Assembly: GCA_963575745.1 (NCBI GenBank)
Contig: CAUYUJ010000001.1
Location: forward strand, 2,418,001 to 2,482,000
Reading direction: 5' to 3'
Length of the DNA: 64,000 bases
DNA from: Prorocentrum cordatum
Taxonomy: Eukaryota
The position numbers and the translations under genes are program-made. Shown one piece after another: positions 1-57,449 of this stretch (position 1 is the first letter of the stretch; the number at the start of each line of letters is the position of its first letter). The notes under the pieces were generated by a model that was not told the origin of the DNA, made no database searches, and saw only the letters and a program-made list of their open reading frames with translations.

Positions 1-190
1 AATCTCGCACCTCTGCAGTCGGTCCGTGGACTTCCTGCGCGGCCACGATTGCCCCAGGACGGAGCAGGCGTTTTAAATAGCGGAATTTCGCAGTGCGAAC
101 GAGAGTCTGACGGTGCAACAAGGCATTCAAATTCCAAGAGCCGGTCCTCAACGGCGTCTCGGAAGATCCGCTCCAGAGAGCAAAGAACGT
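1..190 (-). CDS. LINE ORF2 N-terminus, APE-type endonuclease (partial, runs off window)
   Basis: Manual translation in the +1 frame relative to ORF1: ...TPLRTGSWNLNALLHRQTLVRTAKFRYLKRLLRPGAIVAAQEVHGPTAEVRD. SWNxN and xQE are the first two APE/EEP motifs. Confidence 0.8.
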
Positions 191-191
191 G

Positions 192-1334
192 CTAAAGAGA
201 CCACTGGGTCTGACTGTCTCCCTGGATGGCGACAGCCAGCGGCTCCTCGATTGCTTCGCGGGAGATCTTCTCGAGAGCCAGATTCGCTTCCGCCCAGCGG
301 ATCCGCGGCGCGTCGTCCGCCCGTGGAGTGATCTCCACGAGCTGGCGCCAGTTAGTGGAGATGGTGCCGCGCAGCTTGTCAACAAAAAACTTTTTGTCCT
401 GAAAGCGGTTCTCAAAGAACCTCTTGGCAGCCTTGAGCGCAACTTCACGCTTGACCTGGCACTGGTTTTTGTCCGATCCGACAAAGATCTCCGAGCGGGC
501 GCCCGAGATCGCGGGGGCAAAAAAGCGCATCCACTCTTCACCAGGACGCTGCGGGCGCAGCAGGCTGAGTGCATGCTGTGCACGGCGGGCGGCGAACTGA
601 GAACTACCCTTGAACTTGATCGTGAACCTCTTGTCCGACGGCTCCCCCTGGAGCTCCCATTCGGACGACTCGATGTTGAGACGCTCCAGCCACGGAAGAA
701 GGGCTCCTTGAACTTGATGTTTCGCAGTCTGCTCCTTGCAGCGGACCACGATGATGGACGCGTCGATGGCACGGTTGAACGCCGAGTCCAGCGACAACTT
801 CGGGAAGACCGTGGGCATCTCACTGGGGGTCTCCTTGACCACGTTGAGTTCGCGCTTGAGTTGTTTGACCTCTTCATGAAGAACCTGGAGCTGCTTGGTG
901 TGGCCGCGTTGGATAGTTTCCACTCCATTGAGACGTTGTTCGACCTGCGATGCCATCGCCGAGCATGTAGTTTGCACTCTGGTGGCCAATCCTTGAAGAC
1001 TGGAGTTGAGCGCGGACGTCGTGTTCGTGACCTGCTCGAGCAGCTCCGCACGCAAGGCCTCGATGGAGCCCTGGAGGTTGGCTGCATGGACGATCTCGAA
1101 GTCAGCGTCACCAGCGGGTGGAGGGCCAGCGCGACGCTTGTTGATACCACTTTGCTCTCCTTGGACACCACCACCCAACTCAGCACCAGGAGGGGCAGCG
1201 CCACGGACAGGAGTAGCCACTTGTGAAGACCCACCAGCGCCCACTTGCGACGGCGGGAAGGTCGGGATGTCGTCGAGGTCGATGTCTGTGGCCATCTGCA
1301 TCTGGCTCGGGATGGTGTGAACGCCATCGCCCAT
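192..1334 (-). CDS. LINE ORF1 protein (coiled coil plus probable RRM/CTD-like region)
   Basis: Open frame; first ATG at 1334 in GCCATGG context (the track uses an upstream GTG at 1361). Heptad-rich segment (SIEALRAELLEQV...EEVKQLKRELNVV) then an alpha/beta region. Lies immediately 5' of the endonuclease frame. Confidence 0.75.
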   Translation of the reverse strand: MGDGVHTIPSQMQMATDIDLDDIPTFPPSQVGAGGSSQVATPVRGAAPPGAELGGGVQGEQSGINKRRAGPPPAGDADFEIVHAANLQGSIEALRAELLEQVTNTTSALNSSLQGLATRVQTTCSAMASQVEQRLNGVETIQRGHTKQLQVLHEEVKQLKRELNVVKETPSEMPTVFPKLSLDSAFNRAIDASIIVVRCKEQTAKHQVQGALLPWLERLNIESSEWELQGEPSDKRFTIKFKGSSQFAARRAQHALSLLRPQRPGEEWMRFFAPAISGARSEIFVGSDKNQCQVKREVALKAAKRFFENRFQDKKFFVDKLRGTISTNWRQLVEITPRADDAPRIRWAEANLALEKISREAIEEPLAVAIQGDSQTQWSL

Positions 1335-1480
1335 GGCTCGGAGAGAGCACTGGTGGTGCACAGGATGAGAGATCTGGAAGGTGTGCCGCGGGCAAGCCCC
1401 AAGCGATTCGAGAAATCGCTACGGAAGGGTCCAAAGCTAATCGCAACACCTCGGTTCCCCGAACCTTCGTTACGTTTAGC

Positions 1481-1502
1481 CTTGAGCCAAAATGGCTACG
1501 GA
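1481..1502 (-). other. Complete dinoflagellate spliced leader (DinoSL), genomic copy
   Basis: Reverse complement of cttgagccaaaatggctacgga is TCCGTAGCCATTTTGGCTCAAG, a 22/22 match to DCCGTAGCCATTTTGGCTCAAG. Confidence 0.97.
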
Positions 1503-2247
1503 CCCTCCCCTTCCTCCTCCTCCTCCTCCTCCTCCTCCTCCTCCTCCTCCTCCTCCTCCTCCTCCTCCTCCCCCTCCTCCTCCCCCTCCCCCTCCTCCTC
1601 CTCCTCCCCCTCCCCCTCCCTTCCAAAAGGAGCTTCGCCTCGGCAGAGCAACGCCCCGGGGGGGGGAGCGGCCCAGGGGCCCGCGACCGGCGGGCGCAGG
1701 CCTGGCGAGCACTGCGGCTGCAGCGCCCGTTCGAGATCTGGCGACGAGGGCGACTCGCGAGAGGACCTGGCGGGGCGGAGGGCGCATCGACCTGAGCGAA
1801 CTTCGTGTCTTTCAGAGCGTGAATTACCTTTTTTTTGTTAAGCTGGATCCGGCTTCAAAGGCACGAGGGTGTTTTTAAGCTGGATCTGGCTTCAAAAACA
1901 CGACGTCCTCCCATTGGAAGGCGGCGGGGCTTCTTGAGAAGCCCCCTGCCCTCTAAGAGAAGGTCCCCCCCGCCCCGCCGCGCCACCCCGCCGAAGTCCA
2001 TCGGCGAGCGCGCGTCGTCGATCGGCGCCCTGCCGTGGAGCCAAGCGGGCCGCGATCTGAACAGGGACCGACCGTGCCAGCATTCCTGTAGGCCTACTAC
2101 GACATGTTCTTGGAAACCCACTGTGTTATCATAACAAAAGCAGTGCTCTCAGAACATTCGGCCGAGGTGCTAGAACAAGACAGCCTGAGCCAGACATGTT
2201 CTGAGCACAGTCCGTGCAGACCACCGAAGCTTCTCTTAGAACATTCT

Positions 2248-2406
2248 CAAGGGCTCCTAAGTTCGCGCTTCGCGCTGCGCGAAGCGCGAATAACTTCGCG
2301 CTCTCGCGCCGCCCCCCAAGGGGGAGAAGAGGAGGACGAGGAGAAGGGGGAGGAGGAAGGAGGACGGCGAAGCGCGAATAACTTCGCGCCCTCCTGGGAG
2401 CCCTTG
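2248..2406. mobile_element. Small MITE with CAAGGGCTCC...GGAGCCCTTG terminal inverted repeats
   Basis: 10-bp TIRs, ATTCT on both flanks (5-6 bp TSD), internal GAAGCGCGAATAACTTCGCGC motifs; sister copies at 31079-31244 and about 31490-31577. Confidence 0.75.
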
Positions 2407-2879
2407 ATTCTCTGGCGGGCCACTCGGCCAGCCAGGACGCCTCGCCACTGCCTGAGCGAGCGCACGTCGTCGCTCGGCGCCCTGCCGTGGAGCCACGCGG
2501 GCCGCGATCGGCCCTCCGCGAGCGCGCGCCGTCGCGGCGGCCGCCGTCGGCAGCGCGGCTAGGGCGGCGACCTCGCGCCTGTGCCGGTGAGGGGGCGGGC
2601 CCTCCCTCGCAGCGTCGGGGGGGGGGCCAGCTCAGGGGGGGAGAAGTCGCTGTGGAATCGGCGATGCATCGCCGATGTAGGGAGCCGAACTCTCTACACC
2701 GACGCTCTTTCCGGCCCCGCGCTGGGATTCGCACAAGAAGCCGGGTCCTGGCGTACAGGGGATCCTGGTGGAAAAACGTTTTTCGGTGCTTCCCCGGGAA
2801 AGCATACACCACACCACCCCGAAGCCGTCCCCAACCGCCAAAGAGTCCAGGGATTGAAAATAGAAGCAAACAAACGCCA

Positions 2880-3000
2880 GAAACAAAAAGTTTTGGCGCT
2901 CCGCGCGGGTCGGCGCCAGGGTCGGCGCCGGAGGTGCCGCCAGGGGGGCCCAGCGCGGATCCAAGAAATCCGCGCGCAACACCAAAATTTTATGATTACG
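2880..3000. repeat. Dispersed palindromic repeat (GGATCCAAGAAATCCGCGCG family)
   Basis: Related copies at about 9670-9830, 16750-16825 (hairpin GATTTCTTGGATCC-GCACC-GGATCCAAGAAATC) and 21190-21305. Confidence 0.6.
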
Positions 3001-10287: not shown

Positions 10288-11640
<1,353 letters not shown>

Positions 11641-11702
11641 TCCTATATATACACGTATATCTATACACATAGATCACTAATCTTCTATGTGTTATATTGT
11701 TT

Positions 11703-12420
11703 CCCAGCCGGTTTTAAGAGACAACGCCCCGCGTTCCTTTCCTCTCCTCCTCCTTCTCTTCCTCCTCTTCTTCTTCCTCCTCCTCCTCCTCCTCCTCCTC
11801 CTCCTCCTCCTCCTCCTCCTCTCCCTCCTCCCGTCACCCCTCTCACTTTGCACATCCTTCACAGGTTTCGCGGCCCCCATATGAGCTCAACCGAGGGTGC
11901 CCGTAGCGCAGCCCACATGCGTACCCGCCACCCATTTCGGCACACCCCTCACGCGTTTCGTGGCCCCCCAAGGAGCTCCACCAAGGGCACCAGTGGCGCA
12001 CCCCGCATGCGACCCCTCCACCCATGTCGGCACGCCCCTCACACGCTTCGTGGCCCCATAAGAGTTCCACCGAGGTCCCAATGGCGCAGCCCGCATGCGT
12101 CCCCGCCACCTGTTTCGGCACACCCCTCGAACATTTCGCGGTCCCGTAAGGAGCTCCGCCTAGTTCCTGTTGCGCAGCCCGCATGCGTCCCGGCCACCTA
12201 TTTCGGCACACCCCTCACACGTTTCGGTGGACCCATGGGAGCTCCACCGAATGCCCCAATGGCGCAGCCCGCATGCGCCCCCGCCACCCATTATGATACA
12301 CTCCTCACACGTTTCGTGGCCCCAGACGAGCTCCACCGGAGGTCCCAGTGGCGCGGCCTGCATGCGCCCCCGCCGCCCATGTCAGCACGCCCCTCACACG
12401 TTTCGTGGCCCCCATAGGCG
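11703..12420 (+). mobile_element. HINE-like element, copy B (deleted head, no tail; about 89-bp units)
   Basis: TT|CCCAGCCGGTTTTAAGAGACAACGCCCCGCG head remnant, (CCT)n, then GTTTCGTGGCCCC..GAGCTCCACC units. Confidence 0.65.
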
Positions 12421-12479
12421 CTGTACCAAGACTGGTGTCCCATCGGCTTCTTCGAGCGGCCCGCCTGGGGCCGGGCGGG

Positions 12480-16851: not shown

Positions 16852-17965
16852 CCCAACCATCCTGTGGTGTTGGGTCCTCGTTTTGAAGAGACAGCGCCCC
16901 GCGTCCCACCTCCTCTCCTCCTCCTCCCCCTCCTCGCCCTCCTCCCTCCTCCCCCTCCTTGCCTCTGCTCTCGGCACACCTCTCACACGTTTCGTAGCCC
17001 CATAGGGAGCTCCACCGAAGGTCCCAGTGGCACAGATGCGGTTCCCCACCCAGGGCAGCGTAGGTCGCTCTATTTCCGGGAGCTCCACCGAAGGCCCAGT
17101 GGGGCCCGCATGCGGTTCCCCCACCCAGGGCAGCGTTTCGTGCCCCATAGGGAGCTCCACCGAAGGTCCCCAGTGGCACAGCCCGCATGCGGTTCCCCCA
17201 CCCAGGGCAGCGTTTCGTAGCCCCATAGGGAGCTCCACCGAAGGTCCCAGTGGCACAGCCCGCATGCGGTTCCCCCACCCAGGGCAGCGTTTCGTAGCCC
17301 CATAGGGAGCTCCACCGAAGGTCCCAGTGGCACAGCCCGCATGCGGTTCCCCCACCCAGAGCAGCGTTTCGTAGCCTATAGGGAGCTCCACCGAAGGTCC
17401 CAGTGGCACAGCCCGCATGCGGTTCCCCCACCCAGGGCACCGCTTCGTGGCCCCATAGGGAGCTCCAGTGCAGGTCCCAGTGGCGCAGCCCGCATGCGGT
17501 TCCCCCACCCAGGGCAGCGTTTCGTAGCCCCATAGTCCGCTCCACCGAAGGTCCCAGTGGCGCAGCCCGCATGTGGTTTTCCCCTGCCCAGGGCTGCGCT
17601 TCGTGGCCCCATAGGGAGCTCCACCGAAGGTCCCCGTGGCGCAGTTCGCATGCGTCCCCCCCCCAGGGCAGCGTTTCGTGGCCCCATAGGTAGCTCACCC
17701 GAAGGTCCCAGTGGCGCAGTTCGCATGCGGCTCCCCACACCCAGGGCAGCGTTTCGTGGCCCCATAGGGATCCCACCGAAGGTCCCAGTGGCGCAGTTCG
17801 CACGCGTCCCCCCCATCGTGGCCCCATAGGGAGCTCCACCGAAGGTCCCAGTGGCGCAGTTCGCATGCGTCCCTCCCACACAGTACAGCGTTTCGTGGCC
17901 CCATACGGGGCTCCCGCGAATGCGATACCGAAAGCTGCATATGGTTGGGTCCTTCGCCTGTGTAA
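16852..17965 (+). mobile_element. HINE-like element, copy C (77-bp internal array)
   Basis: TT|CCCAACCATCCTGTGGTGTTGGGTCCTCGTTTTGAAGAGAC head, (CCT)n, about 12 units, tail GCTGCATATGGTTGGGTCCTTCGCC..AA|TT. Confidence 0.8.
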
Positions 17966-28869: not shown

Positions 28870-30079
28870 GCATCGACCTCTCCATGTACCGTTATCACAA
28901 TCTACCTGTCTTGCCGCCCGATGCACGTCTAACCCTGCCCGCGGACCTACGCCGCGGGGCAGCCCACGGGTCAACCCGCGGGACAGGCCACGGGATGACC
29001 ACGAGACAACCCACGGGACGACACATGGGACAACCACAAGGCAACCCGCGCGGCTACCACAGCACAGCCCACGGGACAACCGCTGGACATCCATGGACAA
29101 CCGCGGGATAACCGTGGGACAGCACAGGAGAGGCACTGCATGACCAGAGCAAACATTTGTTAGACCATTCGACCCTAGCCTTATGTTGCGCCCATCATAC
29201 CTCAGGAGCAAATCCCAGAACTAAGTTTGAGCACCCAGGAAATTATCGAAGCAATGTCTGCCCGATCCGCTCGCGAAGTGTCGAACTAGTATCGCCTCCC
29301 AGGGCCCGACACGTGAAAAACCTTCAGTTTCGGTACCTTCTTGGGGCTAGAGATTCTTTCTGGTGCTCCAGGCTACTAGACAATAGGCTGGAACATCATA
29401 ATCCTAGCCTTGGCCGACACATGAGCGTCATGGCGCAGCTTCGCCTCGCTGGCACGCACGACACACGTGTGCGTGTTATGGTGAAGGGTGTGGGGTGACC
29501 TCTTCTTCTCTCTCTTCTCCGCCCCTCCTGCAACCTCCTTGTGCATACCTGCAAGCAAACGGATCCTCAAACAATGTTCTGGTATCCGCTTTCACCTCGC
29601 ACTTTGCTAGCCGTTCAATGAGCACCTTGAGGTCGGTCCCATGCATCCTTCAGAGCCTCATTCACGTATTAAGCCGCAAGCTGGGATGCACCCTTCCACG
29701 GTGACCTGTAGGCCTTGCGCGGCATTGCAAGAGTTGCATCACCTTGCGGCTAGGCGGGCTTCCAGTGCTTTGCTCATAATCACCTCGGCTTTGTCAGTCA
29801 CGCGCAGATCTATGCTGTTAACTAGCCCGCCACGCTGAAACCAATGTAAACCAGGGGCACCATCCTCTCTGATCATTCCTAGCAGTCTGTCCACTCTGGC
29901 CATCAGTGCCGTGGGGCCCTGCGTGCCTCCAGGCACGGAGCCAGCGCATGCTGTGTATCACTTCTACTTCTCCTCCTCCTCCTCCTCCTTCTCCTCCTCC
30001 CCCTCCGCCTCCTCCTTTTTCACCAACTGGTCCCCGTAGTCACAGGGCGTCGAAAATAAGTAGTCGCTCTTCGGGCCCC

Positions 30080-30161
30080 AGTCCGGGCCCCCGAAGAAGG
30101 CGTTGAAGATGTTGTCGGCGTGATTTCGCGAGAAACCTCCGTGCACGCCAGGACCAGCTCC
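30080..30161 (-). CDS. DnaJ-domain protein, exon 3 (G/F region; 3' boundary approximate)
   Basis: GAG|G acceptor in phase 0 with exon 2; encodes [25 protein letters not shown] (DIF-like motif). Confidence 0.7.
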
Positions 30162-30649
30162 CTCTCCAGAGCCGCGAAAAACAGCAGGGATACCGTTTGA
30201 GACTCGCCGTCGTCGCCGCCGCCGTCGTCGTCACCGTCCTCTGGTGAGGCCCGGGGTGGAGGGGTTGACCACAGGCAGTCCCCAGAGAGGTAGTCCTGGC
30301 TAGCCTTCGCAAGCCTGCGGGGACGCCCAGAGCGGACTCCACACCGCAGCGCCGCCTCCCGCGGCGCCCCCTCCATGCGCGGAGCCTGGGGCGCCGAGCC
30401 CGCCTGGGGCTGCCCCGCTTGGGGGGCCTGCAGAGGGCAGCCAGGACGCCAGGACGCACCTCTCTGGGGGGCCTGCCTGCGCGCGCGCAGGGCCCGAGCC
30501 CTGCCAGCCAGTGGGACTCCTTGCCCCCCGGGGGAGGGCGGGGGGAGCCTGCGCGCCGCATCTCCCTCCTCCACTCCTCCTCCTGAAGAGCAGGAGGAGG
30601 AGTGGAGGAGCCTGCATCTCCCTGCCCCCGTGGCTTTGGCTGCCTCGAC

Positions 30650-30781
30650 CTCCAAGCCCGCTGGGCCGAAGGTGTCGTACCGCCTGCGCTTCTCCGGGTC
30701 TCGCAGGACCTCGTAGGCCTCGGCGACTTTCCTGAACGACGCCTCCGCAGTCTCCTTGTTCTCGGGGTTCTTGTCTGGATG
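30650..30781 (-). CDS. DnaJ-domain protein, exon 2 (HPD motif and helices III-IV)
   Basis: [49 protein letters not shown] donor. The 5' end may extend to 30798 (CAG|G). Confidence 0.9.
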
Positions 30782-31078
30782 GTCCACCTCCGCGCCTCCT
30801 GCGCGCTGCGGCGTGCTCGAGTGCCTGCTGACTTGCCTCTTGGGGCTTCTTCGACCCTCTGCGGGCGGCTCTTGCCCTCGTCGCGCCCCAGTCGTGACCC
30901 ACCCCCTTACCTCTGCCGTCCTGGCGAGCTGCCACCAAGACGACCCCACAAAGCCCCGAGACAACGCCGAGACCCTTTTCAGACGACCCGGAGGCCCGGT
31001 TCGGGGCTCAAAACATGTTCAATCTAAGGGCCATGAGAACTTATTCGGCGGTTTTGAACCAATAGCTGGAGGCTTATA

Positions 31079-34079: not shown

Positions 34080-34695
34080 TCAGCGGTGTCCCGCGGTGTC
34101 CCGTGGTGTCCCGTGGTGCCCGCCGTTGCTAGGGCGAAGTCAAGACAAATGATTCTCCCCAACCAGCCCGTCTGGCGGTGGCTCGCGGTGTCCTGCGGTG
34201 TCCCGTGGTGTCCCGTTGAGTGAAATCGATAGTGAGATCGATAGTGAGATCGATACTGAGATCGATGTGGTGCCCCGAGGTGTCCCAAAACATGAGATCG
34301 ATAATGAGATCGACAGGTGTCCCGTGGTGTCCTGTTGAGTGAGATCGATAGTGAGATCGATAGTGAGATCGATGTGGTGCCCCGAGGTGTCCCGAAAAAT
34401 GAGGTCGATAAAGAGATCGACAGGTGTCCCGTGGTGTCTCGTTGAGTGAGGTCGATAACTAGTGAGATCGATGTGGTGTCCCGAGGTGTCCTGTGGTGTC
34501 TTATGGTGTCCCGTTGAGTGAGATCGATAGTGAGATCGATAGTGAGACCGATAGTGAGATCGAGAGGTGTCCCTCGGTGTCCCGTGGTGCCCCGTCGAGA
34601 GAGATCGATAGTGAGATCGATCGTGAGATCGACACGTGTCCCGTGGTGTCCCGTGGTGTCCCGTTGAGTGAGATCGATAGTGAGATCGATTGAGT
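34080..34695. repeat. Composite minisatellite of GGTGTCCCGT (10 bp) and GAGATCGATAGT (12 bp) units
   Basis: Seen directly; repeated at 57820-58435. Confidence 0.9.
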
Positions 34696-34899
34696 CAGAT
34701 GTTGGTTCCACCCCCTCTCCTGCCCCCACAACCTCCTTATCACCCGAAGGGTGGTCGTATAGGTAGTATGGGTTTGTCACTCCTGGGTTACCCCCCCGGT
34801 GCGACGCCACGTGACGGGGACAGTTGGATGAGGGGTTTACCCCTCCCCCTCCCCTGGACCTGGAGGGGTAGTTTCGCGAGGTGTCAGAAGGCTCTTTTG

Positions 34900-35520
34900 G
34901 CCCAAGATGGCTCAAAGAGCGTTCCAGAGAGCCCAAGATGACCTCCAAGATGGCTCAAGATAGCCCAAACTGGCTCAAAATGGTTTCCAAGATGCTCCAA
35001 GAGACGGAGCCTTCCACGGAGGCCCCCGAGAGGCCCAAATCATACAAACGCACAAGAAATCAATGAGGTTTGCCTGCTCGCCTTTTTTGCTTTCGATTGC
35101 ATTCCGAGGCCCCAAGATGGCTCCATGAGAGTCCGAGAGGGCCCCAAGATAGGCCTAAGAGAGCCCCAAGACGGCCCCAAGAACGCCCAAGAGCGCCCCA
35201 CGAGCGCTCGAAGAGGGGCCCAAGAGGCGATCGTGGGGGCTTCCGAGGGGGGAGGCTAATTAAGGACCCCCCCCGTCTTTGCTCGAGCTCTTCCAAGATG
35301 GCTCCGAGAGGGCTTCTGAGGCCCCCAAGAAGCCTCCAAGAGACTCCAGAGAGGCCCCCAAGAAGCCTATACGCGCCCTCCACGAGCACCCCAAGAGGCT
35401 CCCAGCGGCATACAAGACGCCCCAAGAGGCTCGCAAGACCACCAAGAGGCCACCAAGACGCCCCAAGAAACCTCCAAACAAATTCCCAATCAACATCCCA
35501 AGAGATTCCGAAACACGTCC
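34900..35520 (+). repeat. CCAAGA-rich dispersed repeat
   Basis: GGCCCCAAGA-type subunits; relatives at 41240-42050, 42450-43000, 47600-47640 and inverted at 22700-23000. Confidence 0.75.
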
Positions 35521-35660
35521 AAAAAACGTCTGGTCTTCTGGTTGGCCTCCGCCTCTCCTCCCTCCTTCCCCTTCCGTGTCCTCCGCCTCCCTCACTTCCA
35601 TTTCCTCTTCCTCCCCCTCCTCCTCCTCCTGCTCCTCCTCCTCCACCTCCTCCCTTTATT

Positions 35661-36608
35661 CCCAATCATCCTGTGGTGTTGGGTCCTCGTTTTGAAGAGA
35701 CTGTCCCCGCGTCCCTCCTCCTCCTCCTCCTCTCCTCCTCCTCCTCCCCCTCCTCCCTCCTCCCTGCGTTTCACCCACCCAGCACACCGTTTCGTGGCCC
35801 CATCAGGGGGCTCCACTGAAGATCCCAGTGGCACCGCCCGCATGCGTCCGCCACCACCCAGCACAGCCCTTGCTCCCTGCGCTTCACCCACCCAGCACAG
35901 CGTTTCGCCACCACCCAGCACAGCCCTTGCTCCCTGCGTTCCGCCCACCCAATACACCGTTTCGTGGCCCCATAGGGGGCCCCACCGAAGGTCCCAGTGG
36001 AGCCGCCAGCATGCGTCCGCCACCACCCAGCACAGCCCTTGTTCCCTGCGTTTCGCCCACACAATACAGCGTTCGTGGCCCCATGTGGAGCTCCACAGAA
36101 AGTCCCGGTGGCACCGCCCGCATGCGTCCGCCACCATCCAGCACAACCCTTGCTCCCTGCGTTTCGCCCACCCAGTACCTCGTTTCGTGGCCCCATATGG
36201 AACTCCACCGGAGGTCCCAGTGGCACCGCCCGCATGCGTCCGCCACCATCCAGCACAACCCTTGCTCCCTGCGTTTCGCCCACACAGTACACCGTTTCGT
36301 GGCCCCATAGGGAGCTGCACCGAAAGTCCCAGTGGCACCGCCCGCATGCGTCCGCCACCACCCAGCACAGCCCTTGCTCCCTGCGTTTCGCCCACCCAAT
36401 ACACCGTTTCGTGGCCCCATATGGAACTCCACCAGAGGTCCCAGTGGCACCGCCCGCATGCGTCCGCCACCACCCAGCACAGCCCTTGCCCCCTGCGTTT
36501 CACCCAGCTAGTACAGCGCTTCGTGGCCCCATAGGGTGCGCCACCGAAGAAGATGCTCACAATTGCGGCACTCACAACTGCATTTGGTTGGGTCCTTCGC
36601 CAGGCAAA
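35661..36608 (+). mobile_element. HINE-like element, copy D (112-bp internal array)
   Basis: Same head and tail; TTCGTGGCCCC at 36072, 36184, 36296, 36408 and 36520; tail TGGTTGGGT-CCT-TCGCC-AGG-CAAA|TTTTT. Confidence 0.8.
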
Positions 36609-36929
36609 TTTTTCTTCCATCCTCCGCCTTGTTGGAGTAGGACGGCTTCCCAAACCTTAGGTTTCTCTGTATGCTCCCTCATTTATCTGATCAGGGCAAC
36701 TCGTGTGGGCATCGTCTCTACACTGACTTTTCGCCTTTTCATGTCTGATGGCCTTCCGAAGCCTCTGTCCGTCGCCGCGCTAGTGCAAGGTCCTGAATGG
36801 GCCCTCTACTGGGTGTCATGAGGCTGTTTCGAACCCTTGACATCACTGCGTGCTCATCCACATCCCTGATCAACAAGGCAATTCGCCTGGGCATCGTTTT
36901 TGGATGGGCTGCTGGGGTTACGCGAAGCG

Positions 36930-39900
36930 TCTAGAATACGCCGCCTCCCGGCATTGCCACGTGACGAATGAGAGTAGAATCGTACGGTATCGCCCCCTTT
37001 GCGTTGCCACGTGACGAACAGCACGGGCCTGTGTTTGTTTCGTTGCTCTGCGCTCCCACGTGGTAGGCAAAATGGAATCGCATTCCGCCCTGCACTCAAA
37101 TCGTCTGTTCCCTCCCCAATGCGCATGTGACGGTTCAAGCAAATTTCAATTGTTTAGCCCCTCTGGGTTGCAACGTGGCGAACAAAACGGGATCGTTTCT
37201 TTCTGCCCCCCTCCGACGAATGGAATATACCCGTATTGTCTCAGCCCCTTCGCGCTACCACGCGACGAAGAAGTGGGGTAATGCGTGTTCGTCCTCCTGG
37301 GCCGCTACGCGGCGATCGAATCATAATTGTATGTGTGGCCACCCCGTTCCTCAGACCCCCCGCGCTGCCACACGGCGGATTTTGCGCGCCAGGGTGGGAT
37401 CGCATGTTCCTGCTCCCATGCATTGACATGTGGCAAATTCCGAAACGTTTTTTTGATGAGCCCATTGGCGATGCCACGTGACGTGTGGCGTATAATATAA
37501 TTTCTTTCGTCGCTCTACACTGCCATGTGGCGACTCGAATGTAAGGTATAATTTCGCCCCCACCCCCCGAGATTCGGTCTCTTTACAACCCGAACGACAC
37601 GTTACAACCGAGATAGGTCTTTCAAACCCGCAAACAATAGAGTTGCCTGGCTGTTCTTTTGGTACCGACCATTTCACAACCAAAACAACCGATTTTACAA
37701 CCAACGCGATCACTTTACAACCCGGATGGGGCCCTTTGAAACCAAACCGACCACTTCACAACCAGCCTTCAGAAGCGCATGCGCGCTCTGCAGAGGCATA
37801 TGATCGCCTGCGCGCTTTGCAGAGGCTTCTGAGCGCCTGAGCACTTCGCAGAAGCATATGAGCGCCTGAACGCTCAGCAAAATCTTCTGGGCGCCTGATC
37901 GTTCTGCGGAGGCTTCTGAACGCCTGAGCGCTCCGCAGAGGCTTCTGAGCGCCTGAGCTACGCAAAAGCTTCTGAACGCCTGAGAGCTTTGCACAGGCTT
38001 CTGAGCGACTGAGCGCTCTGCAGAGGCATCTGAACGGCTGAGCGCTCGGCAAAGGTTTCTGAGCGCCTGGCCACTTTGCAAAGGTTTCTGAGCGCCTAGG
38101 CGCCTGGCAGAGGCCCCCGAGCGCCTTAGAGCTGAAGCCTCTGCAAAGCGAGAGCGAAAACTGTTTGCGGCGGAAAAAAAACAAACAACACATGGGAATC
38201 TGCATGCGTTGGCTAGAATTCCACCAACGATTTCGTGCGCACTTTCCGCCCCCCTGGGTACGCATGCTTCCGCAATTGAGCAACCATGCGGTTTTGCGAT
38301 TGCCAGGCAATGGGGAGCGAGGGCAAGCATGGCGTATGATGCAACAAGAACAATGTGACATCCACACGCGTTGGGTATCATGTTTCAAACGATGTCTTGG
38401 CGACATGTGTGCCCTCCTGGGTACGCATGCTACCACGGATTCGCAACCATACGGTGTTGCTATTGCCAGACGGGGGAACGCGAGAGCAAAACTTGTCTGT
38501 GAGGCCAACAACAACATATGGGCATCAACACGTAGTGGCTCGAATGTTACAATCAGCTTGCTGACAACATGCCCGCTTTCCTCGGCACGCGTGCTCTCAA
38601 TTGCGAACTCATGCGGTTTTCGTGATTGTCAGACGACGAGGCGCGAGGACGAATATGGTCGATGATTCAAAAACACCGCAATTTGAAAGCCACATGGATT
38701 GGCTAGAATGTTACAATCGATTTCGTTTCCGCAAATCCGCCCTCTTGGGTGCACGTGCGACCGCGAATGCGAAACCATATGGTTCTGCGATTGCCGAAAG
38801 ATGAGGCGCGAGAACTAAAGTTGTCTGTGAGACAAAACCAACACATTGAAATCCATGTGTATCGGTTAGAACTTTACCATCGATTTCTTGACAACATTTC
38901 CGCGCATTCCACAATTCTGAAAACATGATGATTTTCCAATGTCAGACGATGAGGCGGGATGACAAACATGGTTTCTGATGCAAGAAATCAACCATGGGAC
39001 ATCCACAAAGGTTGGCTAGAAATGTACCCATGATTTCTTGGCCACATTCCCGCTATCCTGGGTGCGCATGCTTCCGCACACGCGGACACATACGGTTGCG
39101 TCGTTGCCAGAGGATGAGGTAAGATGACAACATATGTATACAATGCAACATATATGAACACCACACGTGTTGGTTATGATTTTACCAAAAGCTTCTTGGC
39201 CACATTTCCGCTCTCTGAAAGCGCGCGTGTGCCTCTGCGCCTTTCGCGGCAAACGCTTGTAGTTCTCTATTTCCAAACGAAGCAGGCTTTTCAGGCAGAT
39301 GTTGTGCGGTTCGAAAAAAACGATGTAGATTTACGGCATGGGTGTAAAGAAACTAAAAACGCCTAGTCCTGCCACCAAATTGTAGCGTGAGGATCTTTAT
39401 TGGATCTCAATTTGGTTCAAATAGCTCCGTGTGAATACCACAAGGATAGCAATAGGACGCCAATCGTGGCACAATCTGACTCAGAAGGGACACATTTTTC
39501 TTGAGTTTCAGTTGGTTCCCGGTGGGATGCCAGTAGTCTGCCCGTATGGATCGACAAAGAAAGATTCCGATTGGATTACAATGCGATCTCCTTCGTATTC
39601 GCACATGTGGTTCTGATGGGATTCCAAGAAAGATGATCCCTACCATTTTCGAATGTACCCAGAAGAATACCCACCGTGTTTCCATTTATTGCCTCCCAGT
39701 GCGTTTCCGGCAGTATTCCACAGGAAAGCTTCTCGATTGTAACCCAATGGGGTTTCCAATCGGTTTCCATTAGAAAGGGCCCGAACGTGTTTCAATAGAA
39801 CGCATCCCTATCGGATCCCAACAGGACGCCCGCAGGCCCCATATCGAGGAATCTTGTTGGATACCAGTGGGATTAATCTGGTGCCAACCGCACCAGGATT

Positions 39901-47984: not shown

Positions 47985-48056
47985 TTATGATGAATAGTAG
48001 CAGTAGTAGTAGTAGTAGTCGTCGTCGTCGTCGTAGTAGTAGTGGTAATAGTAGTG

Positions 48057-48098
<42 letters not shown>

Positions 48099-48137
48099 GT
48101 AGTAATCGTAGATGTAGTAGTAGTCGTAGTAGTAGTC

Positions 48138-48170
<33 letters not shown>

Positions 48171-48286
48171 TTCGTAGTAGTAGTAGTAGTAGTAGTAGTA
48201 ATAGTAATAGTAGTAGAAGTAGTAGTAGTAGTAGTAGTAATAGTGGTAGTAGTCGAAGTAATGTAGTAGTAGTCGTAGTCGTAGTC

Positions 48287-48338
<52 letters not shown>

Positions 48339-49085
48339 TAGTAGTAGTTGTAGTAGTAGTAGTAGTAGTAGTAGTAATAGTAGTAGCAATAGTAGTAGTA
48401 GTAGTAGTAGTAGTAGTCGTAATCGTAGTCGTAGTCGCCGTAGTAAAAGTAAGAGTCGCAGTAGGAGTAGTAGTGGTAGTAGTAATCGTAGTAGTAGTAG
48501 TAGTAGTAGTAGTAGCCGTAGTAGTAATAGTAGTAGTAAAAGTCGTAGTAGTAGTAATGATAGTAGTACTAGTCGTAGTCGTAGTCGTAGTCATGGTAAT
48601 CGTGGTAATAGCGGTCGTAGTAGGACTAGTAGTAGTAGGAGTAGTAGTCTTAGTAGTAGTAGTAGTAGTAGTAGTAGTTGTAGTAGTAGTCGTAGTAGCA
48701 GTAGTAGTCGTAGTAGTTGTAGTCGCAGTAGTAACGGTCGTAGTTTTAGTAGAGTTAGCACTATTAGCAGTAGTAGTAGTAGTAGTAGTAGTAGTAGTCG
48801 TAGTAGTCGTAGTAGTCGTAGTAGTAGTAGTAGTCGTAGTAGTAGTAGTAGTCGTAGTAGTAGTAATAGCCGTCGTAGTAGTAGTAGTAGTAGTAATATA
48901 GTAGAAGTAAGTAATAGTAGTAGTATAGTAGTAGTAGTAGTACGTAGCACGTATGAGTAGTAGTAGTAGTAGTGGTATTAAGAATAGTAGTGTAGTAGTA
49001 CAAGTAGTAGTAATTAAATTTATTCAAAATATTTTTATTGTTTAAAAATTTGTTAATTTTTTTTATTAAAAATTTTTTTTTTTTA

Positions 49086-49117
<32 letters not shown>

Positions 49118-49141
49118 ATAGTAATAGTAATCGTAGTAGTA

Positions 49142-49196
<55 letters not shown>

Positions 49197-49451
49197 AGGT
49201 AGTAGTAGTAGTGCTAGTAATAAAAAATGATGGTAGCAGTAGTAGTAGTAGAAGTAGTAGTGCTAGTACTGGTGGTGGTCGTGGTCATAGCAGTCGTAAT
49301 AGAACTACTGCTAGTAGTCGTAGCCGTAGTAGTCAAAATCGTGGTCGTAGTTAGTAATAGAAATAAGAGCAGCAGTAGTAATGAACGTGGTAGTGGTAGT
49401 GGCCTTAGGTGGTAAAAATCGCAGTAGCAGCAGTAGTAGTCGTAGTACTTT

Positions 49452-49527
<76 letters not shown>

Positions 49528-49528
49528 C

Positions 49529-49583
<55 letters not shown>

Positions 49584-49655
49584 CAGTAGCAATAGTAGTC
49601 GTCGTCGTCGTCGTCGTCGTAGTAGGTAGTAGTAGTAGTAGTAGTAGTCGTCGTA
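47985..49655. repeat. (GTA)n array, left block
   Basis: Seen directly; noisy AT-rich patch at about 49000-49090. Confidence 0.95.
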
Positions 49656-49665
49656 TGGAAAAAAA

Positions 49666-52422
49666 TATCCTGGCGAAGGACCCAACCATATGCAGTTGTG
49701 AGTATCGCAATTGGGAGTATCTTCTTCGGTGGCGCTCCCTATGGGGCCACGAACCGCATGAGGGGTGTGCCGAAATGTGGCGGGGTACACAACGCAAAGG
49801 ATTACGATTGATCTGATTACGAGAGAAAAAACGCGGGTGAGTCAGAGCGCGAGGGAATATGAGTATGAATGGGTCTGCGCGCGAGTGTATATATTTGCAT
49901 GAATGCGATCATGGAACCGCCTAGTGTAAGTGTCAAGCATGCCTGTCCGAACACACGTGACACTCGGCGTGGCCGCCGCAGGCAGCTTCCGCGGGAACCC
50001 CGACGGCAGCGTCCGCACGTCGCGACGCCCATGTCGGCACGCCTCTTGCGAGGATCGCGCCCGCTTTCGGCTCTTCTTTTCCTTCCTCTTTGCCCGCGCA
50101 CTCCAAAATCCAAGGCTGCGGGCGCAGCGCAGCGCGGAGTCCCCGCGACGCGCGCTGGTCGCCCCGGGCGGGGTCCCAGCGACGCGCGCGGGTCGTCCGC
50201 TGCGCGAAGCAGAGAGAGCTGACTAGCTAACTGGCTGGCTGATAGCGGGCCAGTCTCTGACCGCTGGGCAGAGCGACGACGGGCGAACGAGGCGCCGGGC
50301 CCCCCGCAGCACGGAGTTCCCGCGACGCGCGCTGGTCGCCCCGAGAGGGTCCCAGCGACGCGCGCGGGTTGTCCGCGGCGCGAGGCCAAACAATTAGTCG
50401 GGCAGTCGAGAGAAGGCGCGGCTCGGGGGAGACGCTCCTCAGGTCAGGCCTCGCGGATGAACTCGGTGAAGCCGAGCTCCCTGGCGAGGGCCGTCGCTTC
50501 CCTCCTGCACCGCTTCGTGCGCGCCGCAAACTGCTCCAGCTGCTTCCGCAAGCCCTGCGGCGGCCCTGCCAGGAAGAACTCGATGCGCGGCGCCCGCATG
50601 AGCAGGAGGTCCTCGTGGCGCGTGGCGCGCGAGAGCAGCACGTAGAGCTCCAGCCACCAGTCGTCGTCCTCCTTCTTGCCGTTCCCTACCTCGTGGCGGC
50701 CGCAATCCAGGATCACGCCTGGGCGACGTCGACCGAGGGAGCAGCGCGCCGGGCAGCCGACGGCCCAGGGCGAGAGTCCACAGGACCGAGAGATGGTCTG
50801 GCCGCGGACTGCTCGCGCCCCGGAGGTCTGGCCGCCCCCGGAGCGCCGTTCCCCCGCCCCGTCGCCTTCGCGCATGGTGCGCCCCTGGCACGCCACCGTG
50901 GTGATGACCCTGCCGTGCGAGAAATGCGGGGTGTGTGCCGAAATGGGTGGGGGTGACGCATGCGGGCGGCGGCACTGAGGCCTTCGGTGGAGCTCCCTAT
51001 GGAGCCACGAAACGTGTGAGGGGTGTGCCGAAATGGGTGTGGGGGACGCATGCGGCCGCGGGCACTGGGGCCTTCGGTGGAGCTCCCTATGGAGCCACGA
51101 AACGTGTGAGGGGTGTGCCGAAATGGGTGTGGGGGATGCATGCGGCCGCGGGCACTGGGGCCTTCGGTGGAGCTCCCTATGGAGCCACGAAACGTGTGAG
51201 GGGTGTGCCGAAATGGGTGTGGGTGACGCATGCGGCCGCGGCCACTGGGGCCTTCGGTGGAGCTCCCTATGGAGCCACGAAACGTGTGAGGGGTGTGCCG
51301 AAATTGGTGTGGGTGACGCATGCGGCCGCGGGCACTGGGGCCTTCGGTGGAGCTCCCTATGGAGCCACGAAGCGTGTGAGGGGTGTGCCGAAATGACACC
51401 CCCAGTGGGACCTTCGGTGGAGCTCCCCATGGGGCCACGAAGCGTTGTCCTGGGTGGGGGAGACGCATGCGAACACCCCTACTGGGACCTTAGGTGGAGC
51501 TCCCTATGGGGCCCCGAAACGCTGTCCTGGGTGGGGGAGACGCATGCGAACACCTCCACTTGGGCCTTCGGTGGAGCTCCCTATGGGGCCACGAAACGCT
51601 GTCCTGGGTGGGGGAGACGCATGCGAACACCCTTATTGGGACCTTCGGTGGAGCTCCCGATGGGGCCACGAAACGCTGTCCTGGGTGGGGGAGACGCAAG
51701 CGAACACCCCTACTGGGACCTTCGGTGGAGCTCCCTATGGGGCCACGAAACGCTGTCCTGCGTGGGGGAGACGCATGCGAACACCCCTATTGGGACCTTC
51801 AGTGGAGCTCCCTATGGGGCCACGAAACAGTTCCTGGTGGGGGAGACGCATGCGAACGACCCCCAGCTTTGGGCCTTCGGTGAGCTCCCTATGGGGCCCG
51901 AAACGCTGTCCTGGGGGTGTGGGCATGCGAACACCCCCATTTTGGCCTTCGGTGGAGCTCCCTATGGGGCCACGAATCGCTGTCCTGGGTGGGGGAGACG
52001 CATGCGAACACCCCTACTGGGACCTTCGGTGGAGCTCCCTATGTATGGGGCCACGAAACGCTGTCCTGCGTGGGGGAGACGCATGCGAACACCCCTGTTG
52101 GGACCTTCAGTGGAGCTCCCTATGGGGCCACGAAACGCTGTCCTGGGCGGGGGAGACGCATGCGAACGCCCCCAGTGGGACCTTCGGTGGAGCTCCCTAT
52201 GGGGCCACGAAACGTGTGAGGGGTGTGACGACATGGGCGGTGGGGACGGTGATGAAGACGATGATGAGGATGAGGATGTGGATGAGGATGATGCTGCAGA
52301 TGATCATTCTGACGGAAGAGAGAAGAGGAGGGGGAGGAGGGAGGAGGGGGAGGAGGAAGGAAGAGAGGAACGCGGGGCACCGTCTCTTCAAAACGAGGAC
52401 CCAACACCACAGGATGGTTGGG
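49666..52422 (-). mobile_element. HINE-like element, copy E, carrying a helicase fragment; 77-bp and 90-bp arrays
   Basis: Head at 52422; tail ATGGTTGGG-TCCT-TCGCC-AGGA-TA|TTTTTTT at 49666; GGAGCCACGA every 90 bp at 51001-51361. Confidence 0.8.
50444..50925 (-). pseudogene. C-terminal fragment of a PIF1/Helitron-type SF1 helicase (exons 50866 to about 50925 and 50444-50718)
   Basis: Spliced: FSHGRVITTVACQGRTMREGVILDCGR...WWLELYVLLSRATRHEDLLL, matching SF1 motifs V (T.h..QG.T) and VI (YV.LSR). 147-nt intron AG|GC...CAG|G at 50719-50865. Confidence 0.78.
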
Positions 52423-52424
52423 AA

Positions 52425-52474
52425 TAATAGAAGTCGTAGAAATAGTGGTAATGGTAGTCGTGGTAGTAGTAGTG

Positions 52475-52513
<39 letters not shown>

Positions 52514-52522
52514 ATAGTAGTC

Positions 52523-52573
<51 letters not shown>

Positions 52574-52603
52574 ATAGTATAAGTAGTAGTAGTAGTAGTA
52601 GTC

Positions 52604-52639
<36 letters not shown>

Positions 52640-52687
52640 ATAGTAGTAGTAGTGGTAGTAGTAGTAGTAACAGTAGTAGTAATAGTG

Positions 52688-52733
<46 letters not shown>

Positions 52734-52874
52734 TAGTGGTAGTAGTAGTAGTAGTACTAGTCGTCCTAATCATAGTAGAAGTTCTAGTAGTCGTCGTAGT
52801 GGTAATAGTATATGATCGTGTAGTAATATTAATCGCAGTCGTAGTTGTGGTAGTAGTGCTGGTTTGTAGTAGTT

Positions 52875-52908
<34 letters not shown>

Positions 52909-52978
52909 AAAAATACATGTAATAATAGAAGTAGTCGTAATATTTCCGGTGGTAGTAGGAGTACTGGTCGTAGCCGTG

Positions 52979-53021
<43 letters not shown>

Positions 53022-53090
53022 CGTTCGTAATACCAAGATTCGTCGTCGTCGTCGTCGTAGTAGTGATAGTAGTAGTAGTAGTAGTAGTAC

Positions 53091-53125
<35 letters not shown>

Positions 53126-53144
53126 ATCGTAGTAGTAGTAATAA

Positions 53145-53188
<44 letters not shown>

Positions 53189-53383
53189 CTAGTAGTAGTA
53201 GTAGTAGTCGTAAGTAAGTATTAGTACTACATAACTACTATGTAGTAGCAGTAAGTAGTAGTAGTAGTAATAGTAGTAGTAGTAGTAGTAGTAGTATCCG
53301 TAGTAGTAGTAGTCGTCGAGTCGTAGTAGTAGATAGTAGTAGTAGTAGTAGTAGTCGTGGTAGTGGTAGTAGTAGTGGTAGTG

Positions 53384-53422
<39 letters not shown>

Positions 53423-53524
53423 ATAGTAGTAGTAGTAGTAGTAGTGATAGTAGTAGTAGTAGTAGTAGTAGTAGTAAAAGTGGTAGTAGTAGTAGTAGTA
53501 GTAGTAGTAGCCGAAGTCGTAGTC

Positions 53525-53560
<36 letters not shown>

Positions 53561-53801
53561 ATAGTAGTAGTAGTAGTAGTACTAGTCGTCCTAATCATAG
53601 TAGAAGTTCTAGTAGTAGTCGTAGTGGTAATAGTATATGATCGTGTAGTAATATTAATCGCAGTCGTAGTTGTGGTAGTAGTGCTGGTTAGTAGTAGTTG
53701 TAGTAGTAGTATTAGTAGTAGTAGTAGTAGTAATAATACATGTAATAGTAGAAGTAGTCGTAATAGTTCCGGTGGTAGTAGGAGTAATGGTCGTAGTCGT
53801 G

Positions 53802-53845
<44 letters not shown>

Positions 53846-53868
53846 TTTAGTAGTAGTAGTAGTAATTT

Positions 53869-53919
<51 letters not shown>

Positions 53920-54018
53920 TCGTAGTAGTGGTAGTGTTCGTAATACCAAGACTCGTCGTCGTCGTCGTCGTAGTAGTAGTAGTAGTGGTAGTAGTAGTAG
54001 TAGTAGTAGTAGTAGTAA

Positions 54019-54051
<33 letters not shown>

Positions 54052-54072
54052 GTGGTAATGGTAGTGGTAGTG

Positions 54073-54107
<35 letters not shown>

Positions 54108-54250
54108 CGTAGTAGTAGTCGTAGTCGTAGTAAGTATTAGTAGAGTTGTAGTAGTAGAGTCAGTATTAGTAGTAGTAGTAGTAAAAAAAAAACAAACAAA
54201 ACAAAAAAGGGGGTAAGGTAGTGGTATAGTCGTATTATAGTAGTATTAAG
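52425..54250. repeat. (GTA)n array, right block, with an internal duplication
   Basis: The degenerate block CTAGTCGTCCTAATCATAGTAGAAGTTC... occurs at about 52757 and about 53582. Confidence 0.95.
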
Positions 54251-57349: not shown

Positions 57350-57449
57350 NNNNNNNNNNNNNNNNNNNNNNNNNNNNNNNNNNNNNNNNNNNNNNNNNNN
57401 NNNNNNNNNNNNNNNNNNNNNNNNNNNNNNNNNNNNNNNNNNNNNNNNN
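57350..57449. other. Assembly gap (100 N)
   Basis: Seen directly. Confidence 1.

Follow-up and report, generated by a model that had tools for sequence, protein, structure and literature searches.

A complete spliced leader heads a putative L1-like retrotransposon in the dinoflagellate Prorocentrum cordatum

Introduction

About one quarter of dinoflagellate genes carry relicts of the spliced leader (SL), which mark them as retrocopies. In these ‘recycled processed cDNAs’, as outlined in excerpts from Slamovits and Keeling 2008 (via PMC6050394 and PMC7245778) and from Song et al. 2017 (PMC5585692), a mature trans-spliced mRNA has returned to the genome, leaving a DNA-encoded dinoflagellate spliced leader (DinoSL) at the 5’ end, and nested or repeated relicts record successive rounds. 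Excerpts from a further study describe the relicts as mostly 15 nt long (CCATTTTGGCTCAAG; PMC12014239). With respect to the enzymes involved, the consulted sections of Song et al. give the reverse-transcribing machinery as unknown and report ‘RNA-dependent DNA replication’ to be enriched among leader-relict genes (PMC5585692). A 2018 review, in excerpt, favours Ty1/copia (PMC6050394), and across the corresponding passages of PMC5585692, PMC6050394 and PMC12014239 this group is either preferred or the question is left open. Here, we analyse a stretch of 64,000 nt from a Prorocentrum cordatum contig (hereafter, the window), at the start of which a putative long interspersed nuclear element (LINE) on the minus strand begins with a complete DinoSL.

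LINEs joined to spliced-leader sequence are known from other lineages: SLACS and CZAR of trypanosomes and NeSL-1 of nematodes target SL RNA genes and integrate within the leader exon. Human LINE-1 (L1) is multi-copy and carries two open reading frames (ORFs), with ORF2 following ORF1 and separated from it; its ORF1 protein combines a coiled coil, an RNA-recognition motif (RRM) and a C-terminal domain (structures 2ykp, 2ykq and 2yko). The trypanosomatid L1Tc/ingi elements are LINEs in a genome that, like that of a dinoflagellate, uses polycistronic-like transcription and SL trans-splicing. Excerpts of PMC1874656 and PMC8190864 describe their internal promoter, Pr77, as giving abundant unspliced transcripts, by which these elements bypass the leader.

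Results

A complete spliced leader forms the 5’ end of the element

The minus strand of window positions 1-1502 is best explained as the 5’ part of a multi-copy retrotransposon without long terminal repeats that carries an L1-type ORF1 and resides in a dinoflagellate. By the same best explanation, its ORF2 would be of the kind that combines an apurinic-type endonuclease with a reverse transcriptase. We put at roughly 80% the probability that this is a LINE whose RNA underwent trans-splicing as host mRNAs do and was then copied as far as the cap, and that this has happened repeatedly.

The leader agrees with DinoSL at every position (Table 1), including the first, which excerpts of PMC7245778 give as D (T, A or G) and which is T in the window copy. 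Its 21-mer core was found a single time in 64 kb, without mismatch and against an expectation of 0, and in none of 100 shuffled windows, even when up to 3 mismatches were allowed. The array that it abuts on the 5’ side has a period of 6 and consists of 19.3 copies of a 6-mer with 92% matches (Tandem Repeats Finder, TRF). On the other side, the leader continues into sequence of the 5’ untranslated region (UTR; GCTAAACG...) and not into GTAC..., which opens the intron behind the leader in the SL RNA genes found on contigs L126, L127, L132 and L138 of metagenome-assembled genomes (MAGs). This UTR in place of the intron identifies the template as an RNA that had been trans-spliced and was then copied as far as its 5’ end. 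A genomic DinoSL at the 5’ end of a unit, in the orientation of that unit and outside any SL RNA gene, is likewise what distinguishes the DinoSL-tagged retrocopies. Two features set the present locus apart from them: the retroposed RNA is that of a retrotransposon, with its own ORF1 and, in relatives, an endonuclease and a reverse transcriptase; and the outer leader is complete (22/22) rather than the usual 15-nt relict. The latter form, on our own reading, would imply the use of an internal AG at leader positions 6-7.

The initial annotation of this DNA had placed a 22/22 DinoSL about 145 nt before the ORF1 ATG and next to a (GAG)n tract, in good agreement with the 146 nt measured here and the adjoining (AGG)n. 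Its proposal that the LINE RNA had been SL-trans-spliced and reverse-transcribed to the 5’ end is likewise borne out by a complete leader with UTR, not SL intron, behind it. It had also called the insertion recent; a perfect leader and an intact ORF1 fit a fairly recent event, although the age is deduced from these features only. As TCC/GGA-type arrays make up ~3.7% of the window and all short-period arrays together ~10% (summed from TRF), a leader abutting a microsatellite is only mildly unusual. We do not claim that the element targets microsatellites, or that it prefers them.

Could the leader instead be a target remnant, left by a site-specific LINE of SL RNA genes of the SLACS/CZAR or NeSL-1 type? 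Those elements are also joined to leader sequence, but here the leader exon is whole, without an insertion inside it; it ends exactly at the trans-splicing boundary and lies outside an SL gene. Upstream stands (AGG)n, and no second leader gene or SL gene array was found within the 64-kb window; real SL genes read leader and then GTAC..., which the window copy does not; and the second, nested relict within the UTR (see below) is not expected from target-site insertion. We consider this origin of the leader very improbable.

Table 1 Features of the element and its 5’ flank in the window.
Feature	Position	Strand	Remarks
Complete DinoSL TCCGTAGCCATTTTGGCTCAAG	1502-1481	-	22/22 match
(CCT)n on the plus strand, (AGG)n on the element’s strand	1504-1619		5’ flank directly abutting the leader; TRF
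55-nt segment between outer leader and inner relict	1426-1480	-	putatively captured foreign 5’ segment
Inner decayed leader relict TCCGTAGCGATTT	1413-1425	-	12/13 to leader positions 1-13
Remaining 5’ UTR	1335-1412	-	no ATG
ORF1, 380 aa	ATG 1334 to TAG 194-192	-	unbroken
ORF2 frame (+1 relative to ORF1)	1327-2, first ATG 1327-1325	-	open to the window edge
Start of the putative ORF2 endonuclease region	151-2	-	TTG 151-149, then ...RTGSWNLNALL...AAQEVHG...; leaves the window

An inner leader relict suggests repeated copying

The 5’ UTR between the leader and ORF1 (1480-1335), ATG-free when read by eye, holds a second, decayed leader match (Table 1). At no more than 1 mismatch over leader positions 1-13, the outer leader and this inner relict were the only matches in the window, with 0.05 expected. 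Such a second relict downstream of the first is the mark of repeated rounds. Compared with the DinoSL-relict retrogenes, in which leaders stand in tandem, the two lie 55 nt apart here, and no further match to the canonical tandem 15-nt relict CCATTTTGGCTCAAG was found near the inner one at up to 3 mismatches. Beyond leader position 13 nothing of the inner relict can be recognised, and a small local hairpin of the computed fold includes part of it. The whole 5’ UTR folded no better than shuffled sequences (z -0.76), and an Rfam search of window positions 1-3000 returned nothing relevant.

Other copies were sought among contigs of sequencing runs, the kinds of which were marked ‘DNA?’ for this comparison (X2 being a metagenome run). 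Three contigs—two in X1 and one in X2—follow the window from ~1498 down to 1431, that is, to 5 nt before the inner relict, and then run into unrelated sequence. The depth in bin 1441-1500 was 138 in X1, as compared to ~10-45 over ORF1, and 25 in X2, as compared to ~0-5.5 over the element body. From 1415 to 1498, an 87-nt X2 contig differs from the window at 1 position, and by its 3 unaligned letters it would end at leader position 2; in our own reading, this end may be the point at which copies with other flanks, or with another first base, would branch.

The inner relict and the three contigs diverging at 1431 argue for at least two rounds of copying, with the capture of a foreign 5’ segment. 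They say that the element formerly started at the inner leader, that the 55 nt in front of it came from elsewhere, and that the present form derives from an RNA in which a fresh leader preceded both. Copying from leader-capped RNA has thus probably happened at least twice in this lineage.

The course of events that best explains the locus would be the following. The RNA of the element would receive the host spliced leader by trans-splicing, as ordinary mRNAs do, and this leader-capped RNA would be reverse-transcribed to its very 5’ end—so that the DNA copy begins with a complete leader—and inserted, in the present case, beside the (AGG)n tract. The older leader-headed copy, now visible as the relict at 1425-1413, would have yielded RNA with 55 extra nt and a new leader in front. 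Most likely its position was within a host 5’ region or a little downstream of one, with transcription coming from outside and trans-splicing taking place at the acceptor belonging to that region. A dependence on outside (read-through) transcription is plausible and receives indirect support from the nested leaders. The initial annotation had envisaged re-splicing at the terminal AG of the leader, which is not supported in that form: the published 15-nt relicts would speak for the internal AG, and the nested relict keeps its 5’ start, with 55 nt of other sequence between it and the new leader. If read-through applies, the acceptor would hence have lain upstream of the old leader.

For the outer leader and the 55 nt behind it we favour outside transcription, though template switching fits equally. 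In template switching, the reverse transcriptase, having copied the inner leader, would jump to a point ~55 nt from the 5’ end of another leader-capped mRNA and copy to the cap, with no need for read-through transcription; U6/L1 chimeric retrocopies are an analogue of this route. That other contigs of X1 and X2 join the leader and the same 50 nt to different downstream sequence at 1431, and that bin 1441-1500 is several-fold deeper than the LINE body, would suit the 5’ end of another abundant gene. The same data, however, fit a LINE copy located within the 5’ region of that gene and co-transcribed with it. The ACCCT (1430-1426) between the breakpoint and the relict is explained by neither template switching nor read-through. 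We regard a template switch as unlikely, though well worth keeping in view.

ORF1 is predicted to fold like human L1 ORF1p and is under purifying selection

The initial claim of an unbroken ORF1 holds (Table 1). Pfam returned coiled-coil noise only for its product. An AlphaFold2 model built from 72 relatives, with a mean predicted local distance difference test score (pLDDT) of 81 and values >95 in the alpha/beta region of residues ~190-371, predicts a disordered N-terminus, a long helix (87-168), an RRM-like domain (~190-290) and a C-terminal domain that extends to residue 371. When this model was compared with 350,542 PDB chains in Foldseek, ranks 1-9 were all human LINE-1 ORF1p trimer (E 1.1e-3 to 1.7e-2). 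VIA-align gave Z-scores of 7.5 and 6.9 against human L1 ORF1p over 182 and 181 aligned residues, with a high root-mean-square deviation of the superposition that is caused by a differently hinged helix. RRM domains matched residues 190-290 at Z 5-6.8, and the RRM-C-terminal domain structure 2ldy matched at Z 5.2 (VIA). The coiled coil, RRM and C-terminal domain that make up an L1-like ORF1 are therefore all predicted, with moderate support. We hold an L1-ORF1p-like fold with moderate confidence, as the Z-scores are moderate, and do not claim homology as proven. Sequence identity to human ORF1p is ~7-12%.

The ORF1 family is large and centred on Prorocentrum. An exhaustive HMMER search returned 652 representatives at E ≤ 1e-3 and 212 at E ≤ 1e-10, and among 19 relatives whose source was looked up, 11 came from P. 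cordatum, 2 from the EukProt set labelled Pyramimonas sp. CCMP1952 and 6 carried no name. Three fragments within that EukProt set (P0003, P0004 and P0152) are 94-98% identical to ORF1, which suggests that the Pyramimonas data set may contain Prorocentrum-like sequence. In two P. cordatum gene models, P0135 and P0041, an ORF1-like part is fused to host-type domains, namely thrombospondin type 1 (TSP1) and MORN repeats, respectively; these could be either mis-joined models or cases of exaptation. Searches with the ORF1 alignment in viral and prokaryote-genome collections found nothing, and the 20-mer GCTAAACGTAACGAAGGTTC had 0 matches in viral contigs. The ORF1 profile, run in six frames over all 139 loci (1.55 Mb), found only L001, a short Joint Genome Institute (JGI) metagenome contig that was the single match of the metagenome scan; it is without the 5’ end, and its ORF1 is 72% identical to that of the window.

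Many dispersed copies of graded divergence were present in the sequencing runs. X1 contributed 81 contigs on the element, of which 9 were at least 99% identical to it, 25 fell between 95 and 99%, 27 between 90 and 95% and 20 below 90%, and X2 contributed 10 contigs on the element stretch. X24 had 0 contigs on the element, and the 2 contigs of X21 covered the flank only, at <90% identity; X3-X20 shared 0.07 of the words of the element stretch, which we take to be microsatellite. Self-comparison of the window revealed no second copy of the element or of ORF1. Between the window copy and L001, dN/dS of ORF1 was 0.17 at a dS of 1.22, and variation in other copies comprised 17 synonymous and 12 non-synonymous changes with 0 stops (n = 29, among the 40 of 179 variants listed). 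Purifying selection has thus maintained ORF1 as a protein while its copies diverged.

The reading frame of ORF2 is free of stops throughout ORF1

The frame of ORF2, +1 relative to ORF1, is stop-free from a TAG inside the leader (1498-1496) to the window edge, a run of 498 codons, 442 of them counted from its first ATG. In the window copy this ATG comes 7 nt after that of ORF1; in L001 the distance is 16 nt. Over ORF1, neither the window copy nor the 72%-identical L001 has a stop in the +1 frame (0 in each), where shuffles that keep protein and codon usage expect 4.0 and 5.6, respectively, and reached zero in 10/2000 and 0/2000 cases. The +2 frame contains 11 and 14 stops over the same region. 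Stops are absent from the +1 frame because Leu and Val codons ending in TG are never used before a codon that starts with A: such codons were found at 0/22 of these positions (0/11 in either copy), as opposed to 39/91 elsewhere (19/43 and 20/48; Fisher 3e-5). Met preceded an A-starting codon in 0/6 cases in each copy. No such avoidance was seen in L133, an unrelated leader-capped LINE described below (3/6 vs 23/39).

The product of the +1 frame over ORF1 is rich in Ser and Arg (S 21%, R 17.5%), of low complexity, without a Pfam match and 49% identical between the window copy and L001. The frame is therefore kept open while the sequence of its product is not. This hints that ribosomes may cross ORF1 in the ORF2 frame, for instance by leaky scanning to the second AUG, a suggestion that comes from two related sequences. 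Reading ORF2 through ORF1 would also explain why the TTG that stands for the ATG of L001 at 151-149 need not matter. If translated, a stop-free ORF2 frame spanning all of ORF1 would be an unusual mode of ORF2 expression for a LINE, and it sets the element apart from L1.

Alternatively, the open frame might be an untranslated by-product of base composition or codon-pair bias. A G+C content at third codon positions of 0.66-0.71 alone removes most xTA codons, the depletion of stops can be tested in only two related sequences, and a low-complexity product that matches no Pfam family and differs at about half of its positions between copies is what an untranslated frame might give. Yet shuffles that retain codon usage hardly ever reproduce the depletion, which spares the +2 frame, and the avoidance of TG before A is strong here and lacking in L133. 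We rate this alternative a little short of even odds.

A possible endonuclease start in the visible part of ORF2

About 64 codons of ORF2 lie between the ORF1 stop and the edge of the window, so that 50-64 residues of its product are visible. The initial annotation spoke of a visible ORF2 start in an intact-looking copy. Of this, the frame, open to window position 2, and the unbroken ORF1 remain; no ATG follows the ORF1 stop before the edge, and so short a piece of ORF2, with TTG in place of the ATG of L001, does not show the copy as a whole to be intact. By eye, SWN...QEVH in this piece would correspond to the asparagine and glutamate motifs with which apurinic-type endonucleases open. It aligned to residues 368-387 of the ORF1 relative P0021, at the start of an Exo_endo_phos match, with a weak score of 41 that 13/500 shuffles reached. 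Searches with the 64-aa piece returned no Pfam and no PDB sequence match at E up to 10, no longer protein in the protein database at E up to 0.01 and nothing useful in BLASTP comparisons with P0021 and P0008. In Atlas, the best score was 0.83 and only the cluster at rank 6 featured Exo_endo_phos (13% of its members), a lead at most.

Two longer gene models link the ORF1 family with an ORF2 of LINE type. P0021 joins an ORF1-like part (66-326) to Exo_endo_phos (371-601) and RVT_1 (872-1083), and P0008 has an ORF1-like part followed by Exo_endo_phos; an apurinic-type endonuclease with a reverse transcriptase is what L1 carries, too. From these relatives, the window copy would be expected to continue into a reverse transcriptase. 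A search for longer relatives of ORF1 gave none.

We also weighed whether the locus might be a dead or domesticated retrocopy, that is, a host gene that descends from the ORF1 of a LINE, everything past the window edge being decayed or absent. Only ORF1 is visible whole, TTG occupies the ATG codon of L001, and ORF1-like parts do occur fused to host domains in P0135 (TSP1) and P0041 (MORN). Set against this are an ORF2 frame that runs open for 442 codons to the edge and has endonuclease-like motifs, a multi-copy family with a spread of divergence, and the predominance of synonymous changes among its copies. Domestication or death of the copy is, in our view, improbable.

Leaders next to microsatellites and LINEs in other assemblies

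A scan for the leader 21-mer returned 119 stretches from IMG/VR; a further 20 came from prokaryote genome bins, and together these contain 156 distinct sites. One of these, L133 (1-8137), is a dinoflagellate-like contaminant contig of 72% GC in a bacterial MAG. It reads, in order, (GA)n, leader, a 401-aa ORF1 with Zn_ribbon_RanBP, and an ORF2 that spans 2260 aa or more and matches Exo_endo_phos and RVT_1. L133 represents a second, unrelated family of leader-capped LINE beside a microsatellite. On three more MAG contaminant contigs the leader directly abuts a short repeat, namely (GT)n in L121:1-60, (TCA)n in L124:1-52 and (ACAG)n in L135:1-55, and leader-microsatellite junctions may accordingly be a recurrent feature. 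The ORFs downstream of these three leaders matched no Pfam family except for a weak WW in L121.

A technical explanation would be that cDNA or transcript sequence was joined to a microsatellite during assembly. The junction does fall at a simple repeat, where assemblies frequently break, and the window contains an N gap and a duplicated block elsewhere. But the junction of leader and UTR is present in contigs of two ‘DNA?’ runs, and L133 shows the same layout in an unrelated assembly. We think an assembly artefact highly unlikely.

The scan also brought up a distinct set of sites. AT-rich IMG/VR contigs labelled ‘GVMAG’ (L010, L012, L021, L040, L052, L054, L067, L072, L107 and others) contain many exact DinoSL 21-mers, for example at L010:8001-8021. 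Each directly follows one of a few conserved AT-rich motifs (...TTTTACTAAACCA, ...AAATATAAATTTTA) and is succeeded by a different sequence. It looks as if many genes of these giant-virus-binned genomes started with a DNA-encoded host leader. Titles and the beginnings of abstracts retrieved in a literature search on giant viruses, spliced leaders and dinoflagellates held nothing that plainly describes leaders of this kind. Two further GVMAG stretches, L025:8001-8121 and L065:4200-4269, consist of tandem ~50-nt units made up of DinoSL and ~29 nt (ACAAAAAGCTAGGTGC...).

A leader-headed LINE as a candidate source of leader-tagged retrogenes

Several observations weigh against our reading of the locus as a LINE repeatedly copied from trans-spliced RNA. 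Downstream of the 156 leader sites in other assemblies, HMMER found neither this ORF1 family nor an endonuclease/reverse transcriptase resembling that of P0021 (0/156 each), and a LINE was found at only 1/6 GC-rich leader loci, namely at L133 (Pfam on 9 ORFs). The alignments of run contigs end at the repeat 1499-1627, so that the 5’ junctions of other copies are not directly visible and were read from contig ends. In the window copy, neither the reverse transcriptase nor the 3’ end nor a target-site duplication is in view, all of them falling outside the window. Its ORF2 piece, with TTG (151-149) at the codon where L001 has ATG, lacks database support, its identity as an endonuclease depending on motifs seen by eye, on position and on a weak alignment. 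All VIA Z-scores of the ORF1 model stay below 8, the range in which, by the warning of the tool, a match may reflect a common arrangement. Finally, the element appeared in no RNA run searched, and trans-splicing of its transcripts is deduced from DNA only.

The literature searched, in which supplements were not covered, contains no description of a LINE that begins with DinoSL. In L1Tc/ingi, the shared 77-nt promoter Pr77 marks the 5’ end of the element; here, the first 22 bases are the leader. Compared with L1, no internal promoter is evident, and a host spliced leader forms the 5’ end. The nested leaders and the segment captured between them would be a direct record of re-expression without a visible promoter in a trans-splicing genome. 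This contrasts with the LINEs of trypanosomes, for which excerpts of PMC1874656 and PMC8190864 describe an internal promoter and unspliced RNA.

A leader-headed LINE is an element of the autonomous type whose RNA would follow the same path as that of the leader-relict genes, which makes it a concrete candidate for the machinery behind them. In view of the enrichment of ‘RNA-dependent DNA replication’ mentioned above, the lists of leader-relict genes of Song et al. 2017 (PMC5585692, in excerpt) may include such leader-headed LINEs.

A bolder version of this idea, which we offer tentatively and think rather unlikely to hold in full, is that of a promoter-less L1-like LINE living on the host mRNA pathway. 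It would be transcribed from outside, receive the leader at any upstream acceptor and be copied to the cap. Its ORF2, instead of forming a cistron of its own downstream, would begin at the AUG 7 nt after that of ORF1 and run in the +1 frame through all of ORF1, as a Ser/Arg-rich extension fused to endonuclease and reverse transcriptase, and elements of this kind would supply the reverse transcriptase behind the leader-tagged retrogenes of dinoflagellates. If so, leaky scanning at two close AUGs would set the ratio of ORF1 to ORF2, and the use of any upstream acceptor would account for the 55 nt of host 5’ region picked up between two leaders.

Other features of the window

Elsewhere in the window, the TRF rows of the blocks 34083-38133 and 57823-61873 are identical, with 23,740 nt as the offset between the blocks, and the latter block begins just after a gap of 100 Ns (57350-57449); either a segmental duplication or an assembly duplication could be the cause. 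Two very long (TAG)n arrays occupy 47995-49648 (~550 copies) and 52428-54183 (~583 copies). Satellites at 10399-12422, 16988-17914, 35906-36549 and 50933-52214, the periods of which are 77, 90, 112 and 154 nt, have a core in common (...CGTTTCGTGGCCCCATAGGGAGCTCCACCGAAGG...) and occur on both strands. Among 78 long ORFs of the window, the only Pfam match was a DnaJ domain exon (30023-31018, minus strand), which shares its strand with the LINE and lies upstream of it in the direction of transcription.

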